From Chiloscyllium plagiosum (taxonomy: Eukaryota), in assembly GCF_004010195.1 (NCBI RefSeq), contig NC_057718.1, positions 44,926,143 through 44,952,791 on the forward strand: a stretch of 26,649 nt of DNA, read 5' to 3'. The stretch's first letter is position 1. Each line of letters starts with the position of its first letter. Under the pieces are notes generated by a model, which was given only the letters and a program-made list of their open reading frames with translations, was not told where the DNA came from and ran no database searches. A program made the position numbers and the translations under genes. Of the stretch, positions 4,000 to 24,900 are shown piece after piece.

Positions 4000-6035
4000 A
4001 TCCTGTTAATTTTCCCAACAGTGACTGGGATACACTTAATGTCAGAGGTCTGGATGGGGTAGAATTTGTAAGAAGCGTCCAGGAGAATTTTCTACAACAG
4101 TATGTCAATAGTCCGAAGAGTGAAGGGGCCGTATTGGACCTGGTACTGGGGAATGAGCCAGGGCAGGTGGTAGAAGTTGTGGTAGAAGATTTCTTTGGGA
4201 ACAGTGACCACAATTCTGTAAGTTTTAGAATACTTGTAGATAAAGAAGAGAGTAGTCCCAAGGGAAGAGAACTAAACTGAGCCAAGGCCAATTATATCAA
4301 AATTAGGCAGGAGCTCGGAAATGTGGATTAGACACAGCTATTTGAAGGGAAGTCTACATTTGAGATGTGGGGTACTTTCAAAGATAGGTTAAAGATAGTG
4401 CAGGGTAGGCATGTCCCATTGAAGGCAAAGGATAGGAAGGGCAAAATTCGTGAACTGTGGATGACAGGAGAAATTGTACGACCGGCGAAGAGGAAAAGGG
4501 AAGCATACATAAGGTCTAGGCAGCTAAGAACAGAATGGGCCCTGGAAGAATATTGGAGGAGTAGGACAAGTGTTAAACGAGGAATCAAGCGGGCTAAAAG
4601 GGGTCATGAATTAGCTTTAGCGAGCAGAATTAAGGAGAATCCCAAAGCATTTTATTCTTATATAAGAAGCAAGTGAGTAACTAGAGAAAGGATTGGTCCA
4701 CTAAAGAGTAAGGAAGGAAGGCCGTGTGCCGAACCTGAGAGAATGGGTGAGATTCTGAATGATTACTTTGCATCAGTGTTCACTGAGGAGAGGAACATGA
4801 TGAATGTTGAGATTAGAGATAGAAGTTTGATTAGTCTGGATCATGTTGACATAAGTAGAGAAGATGTGTTGGGTAGGCTAGAAGTTATTAAGGTGGACAA
4901 ATCCCCCAGGACCGGATGGGATCTATCCCAGGTTGCTGAGGGAGGCGAGAGAGAGGAAATAGCTGGGGCCCTGACAGATATCTTTGTGGCATCCTTAAAT
5001 AAAGATGAAGAGCCGGAGGACTGGAGAGTTGCTCATGTTGTCCCCCTGTACAAGAAGGGTAGTAGGGATATTCCGGGTAACTGCAGGCCAGTGAACCTGA
5101 CGTCGGTGGTGGGAAAGTTGCTGGAGAAGTTACTGAGGGATAGGATCTATTTATATTTAGAAAAGAATGGGCTTATCAGTGATAGGCAACATGGTTTTGT
5201 GTGGGGGGATCGTGCCTTACTAACTTTATAGAGTTCTTCGAGGAAGTAACCAAATTGATAGATGAAGGAAGGATTGTTGATGTCATATACATGGACTTTA
5301 GTAAGGCGTTTGATAAGGTTCCCCATGGTAGACTAATGGATAAAGTGAAGTCATATGGTGTGCAGGATACTCTAGCTAGGTGGATAAAGAACTGGTTGAG
5401 CAGCAGGAGACAGAGAGTAGTAGTTGAAGGGAGTTTCTCAAAATGGAGAAAGGTGACCAGTGGTGTTCCACAGGGGTCAGTGTTGGAGCCACTGTTGTTT
5501 GTAATATGCATAAATGATCTGGAAGAGAGCACTGTTGGTATGATCAGCAAATTTGCAGATGACACGAGCATTGGTGGAGTAGCAGAAAGCATGAGGGACT
5601 GTCAGAGAATACAGGAGGATATATATAGACTGGAGAGTTGGGTGGAAAAGTGGCAGATGGATTTAAATCCAGGCAAATGTGTGGTGATGCATTTAGGCAA
5701 GACTAATTCTAGAGTGAATTATACAATGAACGGAAGGGCCTTGGGAAAAGTTGATGGGCAGAGAGATCTGGGAGTGCAGGTCCATTGTATGCTGAAGGTT
5801 GCCGCACAGGTGGATAGAGTGGTCGAGAAGGCATATAGTATGCTTGCCTTCATTGGACGGGGTATTGAGTATAAGAGCTGGCAAGTCATGTTAAAATTGT
5901 ACAAGACATTGGTTCAGCCGCATTTAGAATACTGTGGTAAAAACAATGACTGTAGATGCTGGAAACCAGAGTCTAGATTAGAGTGGTGCTTGAAAAGCAC
6001 AGCAGTTCAGGCAGCATCCGAGGAGCAGTAAAATC

Positions 6036-6063
6036 GACGTTTCGGGCAAAAGCCCTTCATCAG
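6036..6063 (-). ncRNA. Minimal type I hammerhead ribozyme motif (PLE-type), core intact
   Basis: Minus strand reads CTGATGA-A-GGGC-TTTT-GCCC-GAAAC-GTC: conserved CUGAUGA and GAAA boxes, 4-bp stem II, palindromic ACGT stem III, GUC cleavage triplet. Stem I is weak. Confidence 0.7.
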
Positions 6064-6080
6064 AAATACAGCCTGTATTC

Positions 6081-6108
6081 CTGATGAAGGGCTTTTGCCC
6101 GAAACATC
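6081..6108 (+). ncRNA. Minimal hammerhead motif, mirror copy with CpG-type change
   Basis: CTGATGA-A-GGGC-TTTT-GCCC-GAAAC-ATC; the G>A change breaks the ACGT stem III palindrome. Confidence 0.6.
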
Positions 6109-6711
6109 AATTTTACTGCTCTTCGGATGCTGCCTGTACTGTTGTGCTTTTCCAGCACCACTCTAATCCAGACTTTAGAATACTGTGTACAGTTCTGGTC
6201 GCCACATTATCAAAAGGATGTGGATGCTTTGGAGAGGGTGCAGAGAAGGCTTACGAGGATGTTGCCTGGTATGGAAGGTGCTAGCTATGAAGATAGGTTG
6301 AGTAGGTAAGGTTTATTTTCATTAGAAAATGAGGGGAGACCTGATTGAAGTTTATCAAATCCTGAAGGGTATAGACAGGGTGGATAAAGACAAGCTTTTT
6401 TCCAGGGTGAAGGAATCAATAATGAGAGGTCATGATTTCTAGGTGAGAGGTGGAAAGTTTAAGGGGGATACACGCGGCAAGTACTTCACACAGAGGGTGG
6501 TGGGCGTTTGGAACACATTGCCAGCTGAGGTGGTAGAGGCAGGCACGGTAGATTCATTTAAGATGCGTTTGGATAAATGCATGAGTAGGTGGGGAGTAGA
6601 GGGATACAGATGCTTAGGAATTGGCCGACAGGTTTAGACAGTACATTTGGATTGGCTCAGGCTTGGAGGGCCAAGGACCTGTTCCTGAGCTGTAAATTTT
6701 CTTTGTTCTTT

Positions 6712-7950
6712 GTAAACCTTTTCTGTACCCTCTCCTAAGCATCCATATCCTTCTAGTAGTGTGGTGATCAGAACTGTACACAATATTCCAAGTGTGGACT
6801 AACTAAAATTCTATGAAGCTGCAGCATAATTTGCCTATCCTTATACTCAATGCCTCTTCCAACGAAGGCAAGCATACCATAGGCCTTTTTTACTACCTTA
6901 TCTACCTGCGCAGCCACCTTCAGTGAAATGTGGACCTGTACACTCAGATCCCTCTATATATCAATACTCCTAAGGGTTTTGTCATTCACTGTACAATTTC
7001 CATCCATACTTGATCTTCCAAAATGCATCACCTCACATTCCATCTGCCATTTTTCTGCCCATGCCTCCAACTGATCTATATCCTGCTGTATCTTAACAAT
7101 CCTCCTCGCTATCTGCAACTCCACCATCTTTGTATCGTCCACTAATTAGACCAGCTACAGTTTCCTCCAAATCATCTTTGTAGAACACAAACCAGCAGAG
7201 GTCCCAACACTGATCCCTGTGGAATACCACTAATCACGACCCTCCATTCCGAAAAGCATCCTTCCACTGCTATCCTCTGTCTCCTACGGTAAGCTAGTTC
7301 TGTATCCATCTTGCCAGCTCACCCGATACCAGGTGACTTCATCTTTTGCACCAGTCTGCCATGAGGGACTTTGTCAACAGCTTTACTGAAGCCCATGTAG
7401 ACAACATCAATCGCTTTTCCCTCATCAATCATCTTCATCACCTCCTCAAAAAACTCCATCAACTTAATGAGGCACAACCCCACACAAAACTATGCTGTTC
7501 TATTTCTTTTAAGTCCATCTGCTTCTAAATGTGTATAGATCTTGTCCCTGAGAAGCTTTTCCAAGAATTTCCCTACCAACAATGTGAGGCTTACAGACTT
7601 GTAATTTCCTGGATTATCCCTGCAATCCTTCTTAAACAATGGTACAGCATTGACTATTCTCCAATCCTCTGGGAACCTCACCAGTGGCCAAAGAGGATAC
7701 AAAGATATCTGTCAATGCTCCAGCAATTTGTTCTCTTGCCTCTGTCAATATTCTGGGATAGATCACATCGGGACACAAGATCTTATCTACCTTAATACTT
7801 TTTAAGATGCACAACACCTCTTTGTTTTAAATAACAACTTGGTTTAGTTCAACACTCCCTTCCGTGAGATGGGCCTCCACAAATTCCTTCTCTTTGGTGA
7901 ATACCGACATAAAGAATTCATTTAGGACCTCACCTACCTCTTCTGTGCTC
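6712..7950 (-). mobile_element. CR1 LINE ORF2 (RT), continuation of 3680-3999
   Basis: Minus ORFs with DDTK, IQQDIDQLEAWAEKWQM, PEDWRIVNAVPLFKK..NPGNYKSVSL and IKVDK..PD.IYPRIL; disrupted. Confidence 0.9.
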
Positions 7951-9289: not shown

Positions 9290-10495
9290 ACAAAACCAAA
9301 TGAAGAACTGTGGATGCTGGAAATCTGAAACAAATACAGAAATTGTTGGAGAAACTCAGCACCTTAGGCAGAATCTTTAGAGAAAAAGCACAGTTAATGT
9401 TTTGAATTCAGTGACCCTTCTTCAGAGCTGTTTGTGGCTAAGAAGGGGTTGGTATATCTGCTGAAGCTGTGGTAAGGGGAGGAGTAAACGATAGGTGGAG
9501 ATAGCAGTTGGGCAGACAAAGGTAATAGTTAACGTGGAAGAATGAAAAGCTACTAATGGGGAACATTAGTGGCTCATAATGGGCTATTGTGGTGGCAGCC
9601 CATGTGATCACAAGGCCTGGGTTTGGGGTTCAGGGGAGGATAAGGAAGACGGTGTTCAGGACCTAAAGTGATTGAACATGATATTGAGTTGTGAAGACAG
9701 CAAGGTCCCAGCAGAAAATGAAATATGTTTATTGCAGCTTGTGCTGAGCTTCACTGGAGCACCGCAGCAAGCCTGAGACAGAGATGTTGGTCAAGGAGCT
9801 CGGTGGTGTGTTGAAGTGGCAAGCAACAGGAAGCTCAGGGTCATTTATATGGGCAAAATGTAAGTGTTCTGCAAAGTGGTTGCCATGTCTGTGTTTTGTC
9901 TCCCCAGTATAGAGGAGGAGCACATTGTGAGTGGTGAATGCAGTAAACTAAATTGAGTGAAGTGCAGGTAAAACACCAGGAAGTTGTGTCTGGGGCTTTT
10001 GATAGTGAGGAGGGAGGAAGTAAACAGGCAGGTATTGTACCTTCTGCAATTGCATGGGAATGTGTTTGGGGGTGTGAGGAGGAGTGGACCAAGGTGTCCC
10101 AGAATGGTTCCTGTGGAAGACTGACAAGAGAGGGGAGGACATTCTGTGAGGCTAATGGCAGCTAATGATCCTTTGGATGTGGATGCTGATGGGGTGGTAA
10201 GTGAGGATGAGGGGGATCCTATCAGTGGTGTGAGTGGAAAGAGAAAGGATGAGGGCCTAATTGTGGAAGATAGCTCAGACACAGCTGAAGGGCCTATCAA
10301 TCCAGTGGTGGGGGAACTCCAGTTGAGGAAGAAGGTAGACATTTCAGAGACCCCCTTGTATATGCTGGCATCATCGGAACAGAGGCAATGAAGACGGAGA
10401 AACTGGGTGAATGAATGGAGTCTTTACAGGTGTGAAGATGTATAGGTCACTATGGACGTTGGTGAGTTTACAGTCGATATTGATGATATCCACCT
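9290..10495 (-). mobile_element. Decayed Neptune-type Penelope-like element (RT thumb remnant, Cys linker, GIY-YIG, pLTR)
   Basis: Minus-frame peptides TFPCNCRRYNTC, FTCTSLNLVYCI..C, LLYTGETK..FAEHL..PVACHFN. pLTR at about 9290-9430 with a degenerate hammerhead (9391-9430). Confidence 0.88.
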
Positions 10496-11310: not shown

Positions 11311-12756
11311 TTTCAACAGATAATTTGTCTTTTGGGTTAACAATTGCTGTCATAAATGTACCTCATATTCCGTTCGATATAACATTTCCCATTGTCTATT
11401 ATTTAGTTAAATTGCAGTGACCCAGAGTCAGAGAATCGCTATTGCATATATCAGCAATGTTGCAGCTGCCACCATATGTGGTCTCCTATCTTCAACACAA
11501 ACAGATTTAAAAATTCAAATAAGATGACACATGATTGCAAACCAACAATCTGGCTTGTTTGCAGAAAATATTCATATGAACAGAATGTAGATTTCACTCA
11601 CCATAAATTGAGAAGCCAAGTACCCCTATTGCTCTTCTATATAAAAACTCATTTTGGCAGAAGATGGAATGATCCACTATGGCACTACAAGCTAAAATGG
11701 ATAAATTTCTTTAAAAATTTGATGTCATCCTTTAAAGTCCCACTGAAATCAAACAACTTGATCACATATATTTGATGAGTACAAATAATCTATAGAAGCA
11801 TTCACTCTGTGTAAATAAAAATTGTTAGTTTCAATGTGTCATGCCTGTGAAATGTTAAATTGTTCATCAGTGCACATGGCTGGCTAGCAATGAATTTGGG
11901 TGAAATCTCCCCCTCAGAATGATGTGGGATATTGTGGGAATTATGACAGAATTGCATGAAAATTCAAGCGAGGTCTTTTTTGACATCGGGAGCAACAAGT
12001 CACATTTTCCAACTAAATTCCACACATTAAGATGAAATTCTCATTATGAAGCAGCAAGAGATCTATAACTAGGATTTTGCTCATTATCAGCCTCATTTTT
12101 ACCAAATTTCACCTCATTAATATGCAGGCTTCACCTACCAGGTAGAAACTAGATGTCAAGAATTTGTGACATGCAAATCAGCATGGATACCTAGCTCACT
12201 ACTTGATCCTCCAGACTTCCATCTTGGACATTCGGCACCAACATCTCAGGATATTTTCCGTGGACAGCAGCCACATGCTCTGCACATCCATGGATGCTGT
12301 CATCAACACATTCCAGTGACTCTACACCATCATTGCACATCACCAGTCCACTTAATGTCGCTTCTGCACTGCCACACTGCACTTTGGAGTGCACTGGCAC
12401 TTAACATTGGAATACTGCTGCATGGAGCGTCCCAGTTCACTGTTTGGTCCAAGCTGAAATTCAGGGCGAATTGCTTGCTTTCTTAGCATACACTCATTTA
12501 GCGCTTCACAAGATACTCATAGAATTCCTATCTTGCTTTGTTTTCAGCACTTTGCCTCCTCAGCCAGAGCTAACAGGCTCACAGTATTGACTTGGTGTCA
12601 AAGCTGGGAAGCGTGTCATGGTTGTCAGCAGTCATCCACTGAGGTGGTGGACATGTACCAGTACAGCACCATATCAGGTCAATCTCACATCTGCATCATG
12701 TGCCAGCACCTTATGCTACATGTGTTTCAAAGGTCTAATGGAAGTACTCCTCAATC

Positions 12757-13330
12757 AAGAGTCATAGAAATGTACAGCATGGAAACAGACCCTTCGGTCC
12801 AACCTGTCCATGCCGACCAGATAACCCAACCCAATCCCTCCAAACCCTTGCTATTCATATACCTATCCAAATGCCTCTTAAATGTTGCAATTGTACCAGC
12901 CTCTACCACTTCCTCTGGCAGCTCATTCCATACACATACCACTCTCTGTGTGAAAAAGTTGCCCTGTAGGTCTCTTTGATATCTTTCCCCTCTCACCCTA
13001 AACCTATGCCTTTTAGTTCTGGACTCCCCAACACCAGGAAGAAGACTTTGCCTATTTACCCTATCCATGCACCTCATAATTTTGTAAACCTCTAGAAGGT
13101 CACCCCTCAGCCTCCGAAGTTCCAGGGAAAACAGCCCCAGCCTGTTCAGTCTCTCCCTACAGCTCAAATCCTCCAACCCTGGCAACATCTCTTTGTTCAG
13201 CAACACTCCATCGGGCTTTACCATTAAGTGTATAAGTCTTGCTAAGATCTGCTTTCCCAAAATGCAGCACCTCACATTTATCTGAATTAAACTCCATCTG
13301 CCATTTCTCAGCCTATTGGCCCATCTATTC
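12757..13330 (-). mobile_element. Relatively young 5'-truncated CR1 3' end with internal deletions
   Basis: Peptide MLPGLEDLS..LGLFSLELRRLRGDL..NFFTQRVV..WNELP and the 3' tail ctatgactct. Compared with other copies here, segments are missing near 12835 and 13190. Confidence 0.92.
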
Positions 13331-13399
13331 CGGGGCCCTGATGCAGTAAGTTGAAGGCAGTCTCCATTGTCAGTCCAGAGGCTTGGACACAGACATTTT

Positions 13400-13966
13400 T
13401 GCCACGCATGGCAGTCAGCATCAAGCTTCTCTCCTTGTAGGAGTGAGGAACTGAATACTAGGCATCCCACCACATATCAGTACCCATTTTGCTCTGTTAT
13501 GAAAAAAATTCCCCTGGAATTAGAGAATAGAAGGGATTGAGTAAGGTGAAAGTGGGTGGCTACCCACTGTTGCAGCAGGTGGAGCTCAGGAGTTGAGGTA
13601 TCCCAGTAGGTGAGGGAATTGGGTGGGTAAGAGCAAGTGAAGGAAAATGTCACATGCAATAGTGAGAGTGGTACAGAATGAGTTTTGGTGGGAGGTGGGA
13701 CAGTATCAGAAATAAACTGAATTGGAGATAGCAGAGAGGATGGTGGCATTTACCATAGCAGCACAAAGAAGGTCATTGACCTTATTCTTTTGTTGCTGGA
13801 CGTTCCTCTAGATGGTTCAGACCACACTGACCCAGGCAAGGTCTGGTGTTGTGGACTCCTCTGCTGATCCTAAGGGAAAAGGACATCCCTCCTCTGCAAT
13901 ACCTCAATGCCTAGACCTAGGGTCCATGTCTGCAAAGCATAGTGCCAGTTTCCACTGACCTATCAT
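13400..13966 (-). pseudogene. Fossil PIF/Harbinger Myb/SANT-like DNA-binding protein gene (two exons, intron about 13514-13753)
   Basis: Minus-strand remnants with frameshifts and a stop: MIGQWKLALCFADMD..EVLQRRDVLFP*DQQRSPQHQTL..RNVQQQKNKVNDLL|gtaaat...ttccag|..HNRAK...GGMPSIQFLTP..ERSL. This resembles the APRF..LF..W..Q.RKK.NDL..TGGG pattern of Harbinger Myb/SANT proteins. Confidence 0.65.
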
Positions 13967-15164: not shown

Positions 15165-15715
15165 GTCAGAGAATATTGCAACAGAAACCTTTCTGCCCAC
15201 ATCCCAATCCTCTAAAAGAGCTTCTTGTTTAATTCCATTCCCTTCATCCTTTTCCTTGATAGTTATCCCTTTACCTTCACTCACTTGTCCAATTTGTTTC
15301 AATAGGCTAATATGGATTTTGCTATAGTCACTACGTTTAGTCCTAATATTCCAAGTTCTTACAACTTACTGCATAAAAAAATTGTTGTAACTTCTAGCCT
15401 CATTCTTCTGAAAATTTGTCCTCTAGTTGATAACTTTTAGACCATTAACTGTAGTGTTTTTCTCATTTTTTTAATCAAAACCCCCGCAAATTTGAATATC
15501 TATTCTGAACTTTTGGTTAAAAAAAAGACCCACTTACACAAACACAAATTGCTGGAAAAAGTCATCAGGCCTGGCAGCACCTGTGGAGAGAAAGCAGAGT
15601 TAACATTACAGGTCCAGTGACCCTCTTCAGAACTCAACGTTACGAGCTTTAGGCCCAATTACTCGATTTCGACTTATAAGTAAAACCCTTCATCTTAAAT
15701 ATCATCTTAAAGTAT
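15165..15715 (-). mobile_element. Very decayed CR1 3' end, interrupted by a PLE pLTR
   Basis: 'attccaagttcttacaacttactgcataaaaaaatt' is the reverse complement of an FF.Q.VV..WN-like motif. Confidence 0.5.
15536..15636 (-). mobile_element. Solo PLE pLTR fragment with degenerate hammerhead (15597-15635)
   Basis: Similar to 9330-9430. Minus strand reads gagtt-CTGAAGA-gggtc-actg-gacct-GTAAT-GTT-aactc: stems I and II retained, GAAA box mutated. Confidence 0.8.
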
Positions 15716-15820
15716 GATAATTAATCCCAGAAATAGAATCTTTTCACAGGTTGTCTCAGTTGCCCACAATAATCCCCACTAGAAGAAGCGTGAAAAACTT
15801 AGTAAGACTGTTTCAGCATT

Positions 15821-16906
15821 TCTAGATTAGAGTGGTGCTGGAAAAGCACAGCAGGTCAGGCAGCATCCGTGGAGTAGGAAAATCGACATTTTAGGCGAAA
15901 GCCCTTCATTAGGATTGAAGGCAGGGAGCCTCCAAGATGGAGAGATAAATGGGAGCGGGGGTGAGCTGGGGAGAACGTAGCAAAGAGTACAATGGGTGAT
16001 TGGGGGTATGGATGAAGGTGATAGGTCAGAGAGGAGAGTGGAGCAGACCACATCATCCGCCGTCATTTCCACCACCTTCAAACGGACCCCACCACCAGGG
16101 ATATATTTCCCTCTCCATCCCTTTCTGCTTTCCACAAAGACCATTCCTCCGTGACTACCTGGTCAGGTCCACACTCCCCAACAACCCACCGTCCCGTCCT
16201 GGCACCCTCCCCTGCCACTGCAGGAATTGCAAAACCTGTGCCCACACCTCCTCCCTCACCTCCATCCAAGGCCACAAAGGAGCCTTCCACATCCATCAAA
16301 GTTTCACCTGCACATCCACCAATGTCATTTATTGTATCTGTTGCTCCCGATGCAATCTCCTCTACATTGAGGTGACCAGATGCCTTTTTGCAGAGCGCTT
16401 TAGGGAACATCTCCGGGACACCCGCACCAATCAACCCCAACGCCCGTGGCCCAACATTTCACCTCTCCCTCCCACTCTGCTGAGGACACGCAGGTCCTGG
16501 GCCTCCTCTACTGCCACTCCCTCACCACCCAGTGCCTGGAGGAAGAATGTCTCATCTTCCGCCTCAGAACATTTCAACCCCAGGGCATCAATGTGGACTT
16601 CAACAGTTTCCTCATTTCCTCTTCCCCCACCTCCCCCCNNNNNNNNNNNNNNNNNNNNNNNNNNNNNNNNNNNNNNNNNNNNNNNNNNNNNNNNNNNGAT
16701 TGTACTCTTTGCTACCTTCTCCCCAGCTCCACCCCCCTCCCATTTATCTCTCCACCCTGGAGGCTCCCTGCCTTCAGTCCTGATGAAGGGCTTTTGCCCA
16801 AAATGTTGATTTTCCTGCTCCTCAGATGCTGCCTGACCTGCTGTGCTTTTCCAGCACCACTCTGATCTAGACTCTGACTTCCAGCATCTGCAGTCCTCAC
16901 TTTTGC
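15821..16906 (+). mobile_element. Neptune-type Penelope-like element, 5'-truncated with inverted pLTR; GIY-YIG endonuclease pseudogene (about 16050-16615)
   Basis: Peptides PCHCRNCKTC, FTCTSTNVIYCICCSRCNLLYIE, ERFREH, then frameshift to VAQHF..H..IFRL.T.QPQGIN. Left arm 15821-16047 is inverted relative to the right end. Flanking direct repeat ctgtttcagcatttct at 15808-15823 and 16907-16922. Confidence 0.93.
16639..16697. other. Assembly gap (59 N)
   Basis: Run of N within the C-rich PLE 3' region. Confidence 0.99.
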
Positions 16907-19643: not shown

Positions 19644-20005
19644 CTGGAATTCAAAACAAAATCACAGCTGTTTCTGTTACAATATAGAGCTGTCAAGCAA
19701 AGATATATCTTGATGGGTAACATGAAGCTGTTTTACAGAGCTAACTAATTTTTCAATTTTAAGCAGCATGATGTTGAAGCTCTGTTTGAAGCCCTAAAAT
19801 AGGTTGGAGCTGGATTTTGCCTTGATCTGAGCAACTACAAGGAATCTCACTGACAATGACAACTAACATTACTTGCATCATTACACGCACCTTCTGTGGT
19901 AGCCTGGGCCCTCACAGGCAGCATCTGAGTCCTTTACAGGAGATCGAGAATGCAATTTTGTTGTCAGTGATTCAGTCTCAATCCTGTACTAACCATTCCT
20001 TAAAA

Positions 20006-20578
20006 TGTACAGGACATTGCTTAGGCCACTGTTGGAATATTGCGTGTAGTTCTGGTCTCCTTCCTATCGGAAAGATGTTGTGAAACTTGAAAGGGTTCAG
20101 AAAAGATATTGCCTGGGTTGAAGGGTCTAAGCTACAGAGAGGGGCTGAACAGGCTGGGGCTGTTTTCCCTGGAGCGTCAGATGCTGAGGAGTGACCGTAT
20201 AGAGGTTTAAAAAATTATGAGGAGCATGGATAGGATAAATAGACAAAGTCTTTTCCCTGGGGTCGAAGAGTCCAGAACTAGAGGGCATAGGTTTAGGGTG
20301 AGAGGGGAAAGATATAAAAGAGACCTAAGGGGCAACCTTTTCATGCAGAGGGTGGTACATGTATGGAATGAGCTGCCAGAGGATGTGGTGGATGCTGGTA
20401 CAATTGCAACATTTAAGAGGCATTTGGATTGGTATATGAATAGGAAGGGTTTGGAGGAATATGGGCCGGGCGCTGGCAGGTGGGACTAGATTGGGTTGGG
20501 ATATCTGGTCGGCATGGACGAGTTGGATTGAAGGGTCTGTTTCCATGCTGTACATCTCTTTGACTCCATGACTCTATG
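20006..20578 (+). mobile_element. Relatively young 5'-truncated CR1 3' end
   Basis: Peptide MRSMDRINRQSLFP..RGHRFRVRG..QRVVHVWNELP and an 8-bp tail repeat (ctctttga ctccatga ctctatga). Same subfamily as 12757-13330. Confidence 0.93.
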
Positions 20579-20579
20579 A

Positions 20580-21977
20580 TATAGGAGGACAAATAGATCA
20601 TTCAGCCCATCAATCTAGTCCACCATTCAATGAGATCATGGCTGATCTAATAATCCTGATCTAATTCCACTCTCTTGCCTTATCCCCATGAAACTGATAC
20701 CCTTACTGATTAAAAAGGTGTCTGTCGCAACCTCGAAGACATTTAACGATCCAGCCATGACAATCTGCTATAGTAAAGAATTCTACAGATCGATTCAAAG
20801 AAAAATTGTCTTCTTCACCTCTGTCTTAAGTGGGTGACCCCTTACTCTGAAGTCAATACCTTCTGTTCCAAGTCTCTCTCACTAGGAGAAACAACCTCTT
20901 TCTAGCTACCCTTTCAAGCCCCCTAAAATTCTTAAATGGTTCAATAGATCGCCTCATATTCTACTAACCTCCAATGAATACAAGTCCTCATAAAAAAAAT
21001 CCCTCCATGTCCAGGATCAACATAGTGAACCTCGCTGGACTGCTTCCAATGCCATTATACCTTACCTTAAATAAGGGGACCAAAACTGTCCACAATATCC
21101 CAGCGGTGGTCTGACTAGTGCCTTATGTAGTTTTAGTAAGACCACACTATCTTTATGTGTCATTCCCTTTAAAATAAGGGGCAATATTCCTTTTACTTTC
21201 CATATTACCTGCTGAAGTTGGATACTAGCTTTTTTGTGATACATGCATGAGGACCCCACATCCCTTTCTGCTACAGTTCTCTGCAGTCTTTCCCTATTTA
21301 TATGAAATAATATTTAATTTTCTATTTGTCTTGCCAAAGTGCTAAGCCTCACATTTTCCAACATTGTATACTATCTGCCAAATCTTTACCAGCATACCTG
21401 TATAGATTCGTTGTGCCATTCTCACTACTTGCCTCACCATTTATTCTTGTGTCATCTGCAACATAGTACATTCACTTTTCCTCATCCAAGTCATTAATAT
21501 GTAACGTAAATAATTGCATTGTTGCCTGTGGCACTCCACTCGTTACAGGTTGCCATTCCCAAATCAATTATTTCGCTATTCCTCTGTTGATACAAATGTA
21601 CTACTGCCAACACTGTGAGCTCCTACCTTATTAAATAACCTTATGGATGATATGTTATTGAATGTATTTTGGAAATCCACATATATTACATCCACTGATT
21701 CCCCATTATCTATCCTGCTTATTACCTCCTCAAAGAACTGTAATAAAATTATTAGGTATGATTTTTCCTTCATAATGTCATGCTGACTCTGTTGATTATA
21801 TTATGTATTTCTAAAAGCTGTACAACTTTATCTTTTGTAACAATTTCTAACAATTTCCCAATGACAGATGTTAAGCCTATGAGCCTATAGTTATCTATAT
21901 TTGATTCCCTTTTGAATAAGAGTGTTACCTTTGCAGTTTTCCAATCCTCTGGGATTTTTACTGAATCTAAGGATTTG
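20580..21977 (-). mobile_element. Older CR1 LINE 3' and RT region (continues at 26222)
   Basis: Peptides KLHKALVRPPLGYCGQFWSPYLR and QFFEEVISRIDNGESVDVIYVDFQ; 3' UTR at about 20580-20700. Confidence 0.88.
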
Positions 21978-24900
21978 CGTCATATAGTTGTGCAGCACGG
22001 AAGCAGACTCTCCGATCTAACTCATACATGGTGACCAGATACCCTAGATTAATCTAGTCCCATTTGCCAGAATTCGGCCCATATCCCTCTAAACCCTTCC
22101 TGTTCATGTGCCCATCCAGATTCCTTTTAAATGTTGTAATTGTGTCAGCCTCCACCTCTGGCAGTTCATTCCATACACGCACCACACTCTGGATGAAAAA
22201 GTTGCCCCTTAGATCCCTTTTATACCTTTCTCCCCTCAACTTAAACTTAAATGCTCTTTACTTTGGACTCTCCTACCCTGGGAGAAAGATCTTGGCTATT
22301 TACCCTATCCATACCCCTCATGATTTTATAAACTTCTATAAGCTCTCTTCCCTCAGCCTCCAACGCGCCAGGGAAGATAGTCCCAGCGTATTCAGACTCT
22401 CCCTATAGCTCAAACCCTCCAACCCAAGCTTGTCAATCTTTTCTGCACCCTTTCAAGTTTAACAACATCTTTCCTGTAGCAGGGAGGCCAGAATTGAATG
22501 CAGTATTCTAAAGTGTTCTAACTATTGTCCTGTACAGCCGCAACATGACACTCCAATCCCTATACTCAATGCACTGACCAATAAAGGCAAGTGTACCAAA
22601 TACCTTCTTCACTACCCTGTCTACCTGTGAGTCCACCTTCAAAAAACTATGAACTTGCTCTCCAATGTCTCTTTGTTTGGTAACACTTCCCTGGACCCTA
22701 CCACTAGGTGTATAAGTCCTGTCCTGGTTTGCTTTTCCAAACATCTCACATTTATCTAAATTAAACTCCATCCACCACTCCTTGGCCCATCAGCCCATCT
22801 GATCAAATCCCATTGTACTCTAAGATAACTTTCTTCACTGTCCACTACACCACCAACTTTGGTGTCATCTGCAAGCTTACTTACCATTCTGCCTATATTC
22901 ATATCTAAATCATTTATATAAATGACAAAAAAAGCAGTGGAAGAGTGGGCACCAAACCCTGTGGCACACCACTGTTTACAGGTTGCCACTCTGAAAAATA
23001 ACCCTCAACCATCATCGTCAAGTCAATTTTGTATCCAAATGGCTTCCTCTCCCTGGATTCCATGTGATCTAACCTTGCTAACCAGTCTGCCATGCGGAAC
23101 CTTGTCAAACGCTTTGCTAAAGCCGATATAGACAATGTACACTGCTTTGCCTTTATAAATCTTCTTTGTCACTTCGTCATATAACTCAATCACGTTTGTG
23201 AGACACGATTTCCCACACAAAGCCATGTTGACTATCCTGAATTAGTTCTTCCCTTTCCAAATACATGTAGATCCTGTCCCTCAAAATCCCTCCAACAACT
23301 TACCCACCACTGACGTCAGGCTCAGCAATCTACAGTTCCCTGGCTTTTCCTTACCATCTTTCTTAAATAATGGCACCACATTAGCCACCTTCCAATCTCC
23401 CCGCACCCACGGCTATCAATGATACAAATATCTCAGCAAGGACCCCATCAATCACTTCCCTAGCTTCCCACAAAGTTCTGAGATACACCTGATCAGGCCC
23501 TGGGGATTTATCCATCTTTATGCGTTTTAAGATGTCCAGCACTTCCTCCTCTGTAATGTGGACATTTTTCAAGATATCACTGTTTATTTCTCCAAGTTCT
23601 CTAGCTTCCATATCATTCTCCACAGCAAATACTGACACAAAATAATAATTTAGTACCTCACCCACCTCCTGCAGTTCCACACATAGGCGGCCTTGTTGAT
23701 CTTTATGGGCTCTATTCTCTCCCGAGTTACTCTTTTGCCCACAATGTATTTATGGAATCTTGTTGGATTCTCCTTAATCCTATTTGCCAAAACTATCTCA
23801 TGCCCCCCTTTTTTCTCTCCTGATTTCCCTTTTGAATATACTCCTACTGCCTTTATACTCCTTGAGGGATTCAGTCAATCCTAGCTGTCTCTACCAGTCA
23901 TAGGCTACCTTATTTTTCTTGACCAGAGCATAAATTTCTCTAGTCATTCCCTACACCTACCAACCTTGCCCTTCACACTAACAGGAACATTCTGCCTCTG
24001 AGCTCACATTACCTCTTTTTTGAAGCCCTCCCACTTTCCAACCACCTGTTTACCTGTGAATAACCTCTCCCAATCAACTTTTGGAAGTTCTTGCCTAGTA
24101 CCATTAAAATTGGCCTTACTCCAATTTAGAACTTTAACTTTTCAGTCAGGTCTAAGTTTTCCCATAACTATTTTAAAATTGATAGATGTATGATCAGCAA
24201 GAAGCCCTCCCCCACTGACATCTCAGTCACTTTCCCTGCCTTTTTTCCCAAGAGAAGGTCACGTTTTGCTTCCTCTCTTGTAGTTTCATCCATATACTGA
24301 ATAAGAGAAAGTTCTTGTCGACACTTAACAAATTCCTCTCCATTCAAACCCTTAACACTGTGGCAGTCCCAGTCTATGTTTAGGAGGTTAAAATCCCCTA
24401 CCTTTACAACTCTATCATTCTTACAGATATCTGAAACCTCCTTCCAAACCTGTTTCTCAATTTCCCTCTGACTTTTGGAAGGGGCCTACAGTGCAAACCC
24501 AATAAGATGATAATCCCTTTCTCATTTCTCAGTTCCATCCAACTTCACTGGACGTGCCCACAGAAATATCCTCCCTAAGTACAGCCGTAATGATATCCCT
24601 AACCAAAAACACCACTCCCCTCCTCTCTTGCTTCCCTTTCTATCCTTCCTATAGAATTTATATCCTGAAACATTAAGCTGCCAGTCCTGCCCTTCCCTGA
24701 AACACATGTCTGTAATTGCTATGATATCCCAGATCCTTGTTCCCAGCCATGTTCTCAGGTCTTCTACCTTACATGTCAGGCCTCTTGCAATTAAATAAAT
24801 GCGGTTTAATTTAACAGTCTTACCCCCATTCTTTATGTTGCTCTTGCTGCCTTGACGATTTGATTTGCTCATCTTCTCAACTGTACCAGCCTCAGGTTTA

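Follow-up and report, generated by a model that had tools for sequence, protein, structure and literature searches.

A hairpin insertion in a LINE open reading frame

Within the window, by which we mean the whole 26,649-nucleotide stretch of DNA that was analysed, a LINE ORF2 (RVT_1 match, E 2e-22), which we take to be of CR1 type, is interrupted by a 237-bp insert at 5937-6173. The insert lies between two exact copies of a 14-bp TSD, TTTAGAATACTGTG, at 5923-5936 and 6174-6187, which cannot be extended on either side; a 14-mer match with 3 nt of slack at each end has a chance probability of about 2e-7. Removal of the insert and one TSD in silico leaves the CR1 ORF2 frame open for about 40 further codons, and in two other CR1 copies in the window (6717-6797 and 20000-20105) the target is single and unbroken.

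The bulk of the insert is a hairpin, its arms being complementary at 93 of 101 positions around C6072, with 2 of the 8 differing sites of CpG type. Its predicted fold has an energy of -176.8 kcal/mol (z = -23.8), and none of 200 shuffled sequences was equally stable. A first-pass annotation of this DNA had described a 237-bp insert with an exact 14-bp TSD, a 34-nt tail and arms symmetric about 6072 with a 1-nt spacer, and had every one of these coordinates right. The features of the hairpin, and of a longer copy of the same family, are as follows.

5923-5936, plus strand: left copy of the 14-bp TSD, host CR1 ORF2 sequence that is present as a single copy in other CR1 elements
5937-5970, minus strand: Penelope-like element (PLE) tail of 34 nt, on one arm only, the 3' end of the element; homologous to 16872-16906 of the long copy
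5971-6071, minus strand: arm A, the sense copy of the pLTR end, beginning 8 nt ahead of the hammerhead core
6036-6063, minus strand: minimal type I hammerhead motif of arm A with an intact core (CUGAUGA-A-helix II-GAAA-CGUC), predicted to be cut between 6036 and 6035; features as in the available text of PMC4209133
6072, plus strand: 1-nt spacer, which may belong to arm B; the homologous position of the long-copy pLTR has the same base (a single base, hence a weak indication)
6073-6173, plus strand: arm B, the inverted copy of the pLTR end, with no tail
6081-6108, plus strand: decayed hammerhead motif of arm B; G>A at 6106 destroys the ACGU palindrome, and G>A at 6109 the first pair of helix I
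6174-6187, plus strand: right copy of the 14-bp TSD
15822-16906, plus strand: longer copy of the hairpin's PLE family, with inverted arm, GIY-YIG fragment, pLTR end, tail and TSD

The host CR1-type LINE (4330-6700, plus strand) adjoins a related LINE fragment of opposite orientation (6707-7770), and more copies of it are found at about 12750-13480, 20000-20570 and 21300-23220.

The parent Penelope-like element

To judge from homology within the window, an endonuclease-positive (EN+) PLE of a shark-like genome contributed its pLTR end to the hairpin, whose sense is on the minus strand. Both arms align to the pLTR of the long copy, at 90.5% over 116 nt (to 16780-16895) and 84.6% over 104 nt, and a hairpin arm aligns to the inverted arm of the long copy (15821-15912) at 89% over 92 nt. 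The long copy begins with an inverted arm (15821-15993) that is at least 173 nt long and may reach about 228 nt, its mate entering the N gap at 16639-16697. This is followed by a frameshifted GIY-YIG fragment from 16046, the pLTR end at 16699-16871 and a tail of 35 nt, and a TSD of 14-16 bp is found at 15808 and 16907. The ORF piece of the long copy is 66-88% identical to P0003, a Chiloscyllium punctatum protein by its NCBI name, which has GIY-YIG and RVT_1 matches, both slightly below the Pfam curated cut-offs. Pfam gave no match on the window's own GIY-YIG pieces, and their identity is taken via P0003. Ahead of the GIY-YIG domain a CX4CxxC linker reads CHCRNCKTC in the long copy and CHRRNCKTC in P0003. 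A CX2-5CxxC linker at this position is described as a feature common to Neptune and Nematis (PMC8557442), and by this motif the parent family carries a linker of the Neptune/Nematis type.

In the hairpin and the long copy alike, the outer end of the inverted arm coincides with the border between pLTR and tail. The tails (34-35 nt) and TSDs (14 to 16 bp) are of similar length, and the TSD sequences differ. The fold-back points are hundreds of bases apart, the hairpin being made of 101 + 135 nt and the long copy of at least 173 + about 860 nt. There is no RT and GIY-YIG ORF inside the 237-bp insert, which contains the pLTR end only; it shares with EN+ PLE insertions its pLTR origin, an inverted 5'-truncated copy, a one-sided tail of 34 nt and a TSD. 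The earlier proposal of a PLE origin, made from the pLTR end, the inverted structure and the short tail, is thus borne out by the recurrence of this layout at 15822-16906.

MITEs carry terminal inverted repeats at either end, with a DNA transposon as partner. While a TSD next to long inverted arms could suggest a MITE or another fold-back DNA transposon, we give this reading almost no credence: the arms are PLE pLTR ends linked to a GIY-YIG element, so that the partner is a PLE, a tail lies beyond the inverted repeat on one side, and the TSD is 14 bp long and unlike that of the long copy in sequence. The pLTR homology, the tail outside the inverted repeat and the 14-bp TSD all agree with the first-pass view of a retrotransposed element that merely resembles a MITE. 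Palindromes are also a known class of assembly and library artefact, which would favour a spurious fold-back here. We regard such an artefact as very improbable, given that the arms differ at 8 of 101 sites, 2 of them CpG-type, that the TSD is exact, that the host frame continues across the empty site and that the layout recurs in the long copy.

Hammerhead motifs of the two arms

A ribozyme motif had been reported in each arm, and both were found: the minus strand reads CTGATGA-A-GGGC-TTTT-GCCC-GAAA-CGTC from 6063, and the plus strand has the same motif from 6081, ending in CATC. The motif of arm A has the features of a minimal type I hammerhead, namely CUGANGA and GAAA boxes, an extra base after position 9, a G10.1-C11.1 pair and a NUH triplet. 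It also has the palindromic 15.2-16.2 (ACGU) for dimer pairing, and helix III is absent. Arm B has kept the boxes and an AUC triplet and has lost the ACGU palindrome (G>A at 6106). Helix I, 4-5 bp in the published minimal form, retains 3 of 4 pairs in arm A and 2 of 4 in arm B; each arm of the long copy has all 4. The arm A features resemble the minimal hammerheads of metazoan PLEs (PMC4209133), which share the core, the extra base between 9 and 10.1, G10.1-C11.1, the palindromic 15.2-16.2 and the lack of helix III. In the hairpin, unlike in those examples, the cores are only 17 nt apart and helix II is 4 bp long, and the available text of that paper names no sharks.

These assignments rest on the published description of minimal hammerheads rather than on Rfam. 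A covariance-model check had been suggested, and in the Rfam scan of the window it turned up no hammerhead, the output at E<=1 being two weak unrelated matches. A mir-2131 match, with E 0.067 and 29 bits where the cut-off is 92, was rejected as one that any hairpin might give.

The two motifs being on opposite strands, whichever strand is transcribed yields an RNA with one sense core, which rules out a cis dimer of the two. The earlier description of two opposed hammerheads therefore applies to the DNA and does not carry over to RNA. Likewise, its suggestion that minimal type I hammerheads of the pLTR work as dimers finds the appropriate motif in arm A, but the pair present here cannot act as a cis dimer and arm B lacks ACGU. 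For the 44-nt motif, the best homodimer fold is 5.7 kcal/mol more favourable than the predicted dimer fold. The predicted probability of helix II is 1e-14 within the full hairpin, as opposed to 1.0 in a single arm, and releasing the hammerhead motif from the full hairpin is predicted to cost 38-40 kcal/mol.

Copies of the arm in related organisms

Three DNA runs and one raw RNA run of related organisms (4 of the 24 runs listed) were aligned to 5917-6106. These runs contain only 0.53-0.58 of the words, indicating that they derive from relatives and not from the genome of the window. All three DNA runs are very rich in the arm, with 57,727-85,836 contigs aligned per run. Near-symmetric hairpins occur in each of them: 3 of the 24 listed pieces cross the centre, one per run, with 3-7 gaps each. 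Depth at the centre is 0.5-0.9% of that at 6059 in the DNA contigs, and 19 of 884 reads in the RNA, values that are not a copy fraction because contig depths, when summed, count the arms too often, and because hairpins are poorly represented in sequencing and assembly. Some contigs match the centre letters of the window; at 6069, 37-40% of the depth in the related runs differs from it, and deletions of 1-2 nt at 6069, 6070 and 6076 are found in 13-52 contigs per DNA run. The three DNA runs showed no orthologous insertion, a gap that proves nothing as no listed piece spans the stretch.

Joints between arms also vary. In 14 of the 15 joints shown (362 in total), an antisense arm ending at one of 9 points (5957-6035) is joined to a sense arm starting at 6071-6080, although the reference can show only joints entering at about 6071-6085, so that the 5' hot spot is partly built in, and the sides of the joints are 18-29 letters long (one 42) at 82% likeness and were flagged as unreliable by the aligner. 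Between the joined arms lie 1-5 letters where listed, the number being unknown for 8 of the 14. The best supported joint among those shown, 6028 to 6077, has 23, 12 and 15 contigs in its support. Behind 6063 and 6067, positions to which the reference forces them (6063-6067), loose ends number 519-658 contigs per run and show an agreement of only 0.32-0.34, compared with 0.35 for random tail-end flanks.

Among the loose ends at 6068 in the RNA run, some look like the long copy's upstream pLTR (agreement 0.61), indicating that longer copies are transcribed too. There was no pile-up of ends in this run, a poly(A) single-cell library that is not expected to show a cut site. As a separate observation on 5917-6106, A>G/T>C changes in the RNA run lean, at 7 of the 8 sites listed, to the strand that A-to-I editing would predict (one-sided p 0.035), as against 10 of 21 other sites; this is a hint only, as other changes swing equally between strands and the differences were scored against the window rather than against DNA of the same individual. 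Exact-pattern scans of non-eukaryotic collections gave no matches to the fold-back (metagenome contigs) or to the ribozyme arm (viral, genome and metagenome contigs).

These data bear on whether the hairpin belongs to a self-propagating, non-autonomous palindromic family, in which a master hairpin would be transcribed whole and retrotransposed, its copies sharing centre and length. Near-symmetric hairpins in all three DNA runs, the contigs with the window's centre letters and the minority variants common to both arms are what such a family would give. The variants are T at 6006 and 6029, where the relatives have G at 52-75% of depth, and their presence in both arms, which also have the 5' letters in common, seems to point to a single source. 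They fit equally well, however, with a snap-back at each insertion, in which one cDNA arrives at the 5' terminus of its template, folds back and copies itself into a mirror arm. Several observations speak against a master hairpin: the centre letters and lengths vary and joints of many lengths are present in the relatives, the fold-back point of the window's long copy of the same family is a different one, a transcript of the whole hairpin would lock its priming region and ribozyme into a duplex of -177 kcal/mol, and the layout with a tail on one arm is what a PLE enzyme makes anew. We therefore consider a palindromic family improbable. From the varying centre letters and the many joint lengths in three related organisms, the comparison, which is indirect, favours hairpins made anew at each insertion over a family with a fixed centre, though a modest family of that kind may exist in this genome.

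The first-pass annotation had offered two options, an extreme truncation product of a Neptune PLE or a distinct ribozyme-bearing family. Truncation fits the data best, with a linker of Neptune/Nematis type in the parent family, while a distinct fold-back family with a common centre found no support in the long copy, which folds elsewhere, or in the varying centres and joints of the three relatives.

The snap-back described above has in its favour the near-exact symmetry of the arms along with the variants that both of them carry, and junction palindromes have been read as a sign of self-priming, as proposed for rotifer PLEs (PMC3846280). On its own, however, it does not account for the position of the inverted arm's end, at the pLTR/tail border in the hairpin as well as in the long copy, or for the strongly unequal arms seen in the long copy and in the joints of relatives. 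We hold it to be unlikely, although it is the chief competitor of the origin proposed next.

A proposed origin from twin cDNAs

We consider it likely that the insert consists of head-to-head copies of the pLTR end that were built at the site, in trans, by a PLE GIY-YIG/RT protein through twin cDNAs. The endonuclease would nick both target strands, 14 nt apart, and each nick would prime one cDNA, one from the tail end and the other from the pLTR end. Both cDNAs would copy the same kind of RNA toward its 5' end and halt 8-10 nt before the hammerhead core, after which the joining of the two cDNA 3' ends would give the head-to-head arms. The near-perfect mirror would then result from both cDNAs halting in one narrow zone, probably the 5' end of a short ribozyme-headed template. 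As both copies extend through the predicted cut site, the template would have been uncut at the ribozyme. Copies seem to end shortly before the ribozyme core rather than at its cut site. Both the spacer C and the G ahead of it are also found at the homologous positions of the long-copy pLTR, suggesting that the arms may have stopped 1-2 nt apart. After insertion the element would probably be inert, its one sense ribozyme and its priming region being buried in the 101-bp duplex.

The twin-cDNA step is extrapolated from in vitro work on a Poseidon-clade enzyme. For the anole PLE, two RT start sites bounding the tail were found in vitro, both target strands were cut and extended, the protein is predicted to dimerise and uncut RNA was the main substrate (PMC11167929). 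The mechanism described for Poseidon_Ac (PAc; Frangieh et al. 2024, PMC11167929), with two RT starts at the borders of the tail, both strands cleaved and extended, an AT-rich target and an uncut RNA template, would yield the layout of the hairpin. PAc belongs to another PLE clade, however, and the main text of that paper contains neither hairpin products nor a stop zone before the ribozyme.

As for the cause of the 5' stop zone, transcription start is the simplest guess. A splice acceptor was rejected as an explanation: at this boundary a pyrimidine run and AG are present in the long 3' pLTR, but the AG is absent from the hairpin arms and the long inverted arm.

If a unit propagates alone, it may be a ribozyme-headed monomer of about 135 nt rather than the hairpin. 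A bolder version of this idea is that a non-coding shark-PLE RNA of about 135 nt, starting just ahead of the hammerhead, spreads in a SINE-like manner, ACGU-paired RNAs feeding a dimeric GIY-YIG/RT such that one event produces two head-to-head cDNAs. Taken as a whole this is speculative, and we would not expect it to hold. Were it true, the minimal hammerhead would be a module for template pairing and 5'-boundary setting more than a cutter, and the hairpins would provide a genome-wide read-out of an unsolved step in PLE insertion.

Relation to described elements

The standard layout of an EN+ PLE insertion is an inverted 5'-truncated copy with a tail of 30-40 bp (PMC8557442), and head-to-head junction palindromes have been described in PLE insertions (PMC3846280). 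The hairpin resembles the complex insertions of EN+ PLEs (Penelope/Poseidon, Neptune and Nematis; Arkhipova et al. 2013, PMC3846280; Craig et al. 2021, PMC8557442) in its head-to-head inverted copy, one-sided tail, TSD, junction palindrome and pLTR homology. It differs from those presented in the available text of these papers in having no coding sequence and in that both copies are cut to about 100 nt, with the arms one base apart. Its TSD is 14 bp long, compared with 8-10 bp in the rotifer examples (PMC3846280, PMC8557442). Pairs of minimal hammerheads spaced about 100-700 bp apart on opposite strands, as well as masses of solo motifs from truncated PLEs, have also been described (Cervera and De la Pena 2014, PMC4209133). 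With the inverted pLTR and tail and the opposed minimal hammerheads all in print in the available text of these three sources (PMC3846280, PMC8557442, PMC4209133), the earlier suggestion of an undescribed system was too strong. The insert is an extreme but expected form of the described PLE insertion pattern.

Non-LTR retrozymes were reportedly described by Cervera and De la Pena in 2020. They are head-to-tail tandems with same-sense hammerheads (Li et al. 2026, bioRxiv 10.64898/2026.07.22.740005). The hairpin shares with the retrozymes of that preprint, which include some in one chondrichthyan genome, a non-coding, PLE-derived sequence and a type I hammerhead, but its copies are head-to-head and each strand has one sense core. 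Among the papers listed, our literature search found no palindromic non-autonomous PLE and no shark hairpin, a weak result given that Repbase and most subscription papers were outside its coverage.

A single insertion of this kind is ordinary. As a class, the hairpins bear on how the inverted copy of PLEs arises and on the role of the conserved but weak PLE hammerhead. If both cDNAs stop independently 8-12 nt before the core instead of at the cut site, the 5' terminus of their template would be mapped, and cleavage would be dispensable in vivo, in line with the in vitro result on PAc. The residue of interest is thus the 5' stop zone, together with a short ribozyme-headed monomer as a possible independent template. 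Hairpins of 100 bp, if very abundant, would also be a source of dsRNA in shark transcripts.

A second PLE family in the window

The window also contains an older copy of a second PLE family at 9290-10456 (minus strand), with a decayed RT-thumb/GIY-YIG fragment (27-30% to P0003), a tail, and a pLTR in which a decayed hammerhead motif lies at 9425. We looked for a TSD and an inverted arm at this copy and neither was clear. A solo, tail-less stub of about 100 nt from the same family lies at 15536-15634 (minus strand), is 73.5% identical to 9330-9429, and has no TSD that we could find around it. Its homology begins about 4 nt ahead of the hammerhead core, making this a second boundary in the window at the front edge of a ribozyme. 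Between the two PLE families helix I differs in sequence yet stays paired (AGUU/AACU versus AAUC/GAUU and AGUC/GAUU), a comparison of just four sequences (the motifs at 15630, 9425, 16780 and 15912) that gives a hint of selection on the fold.
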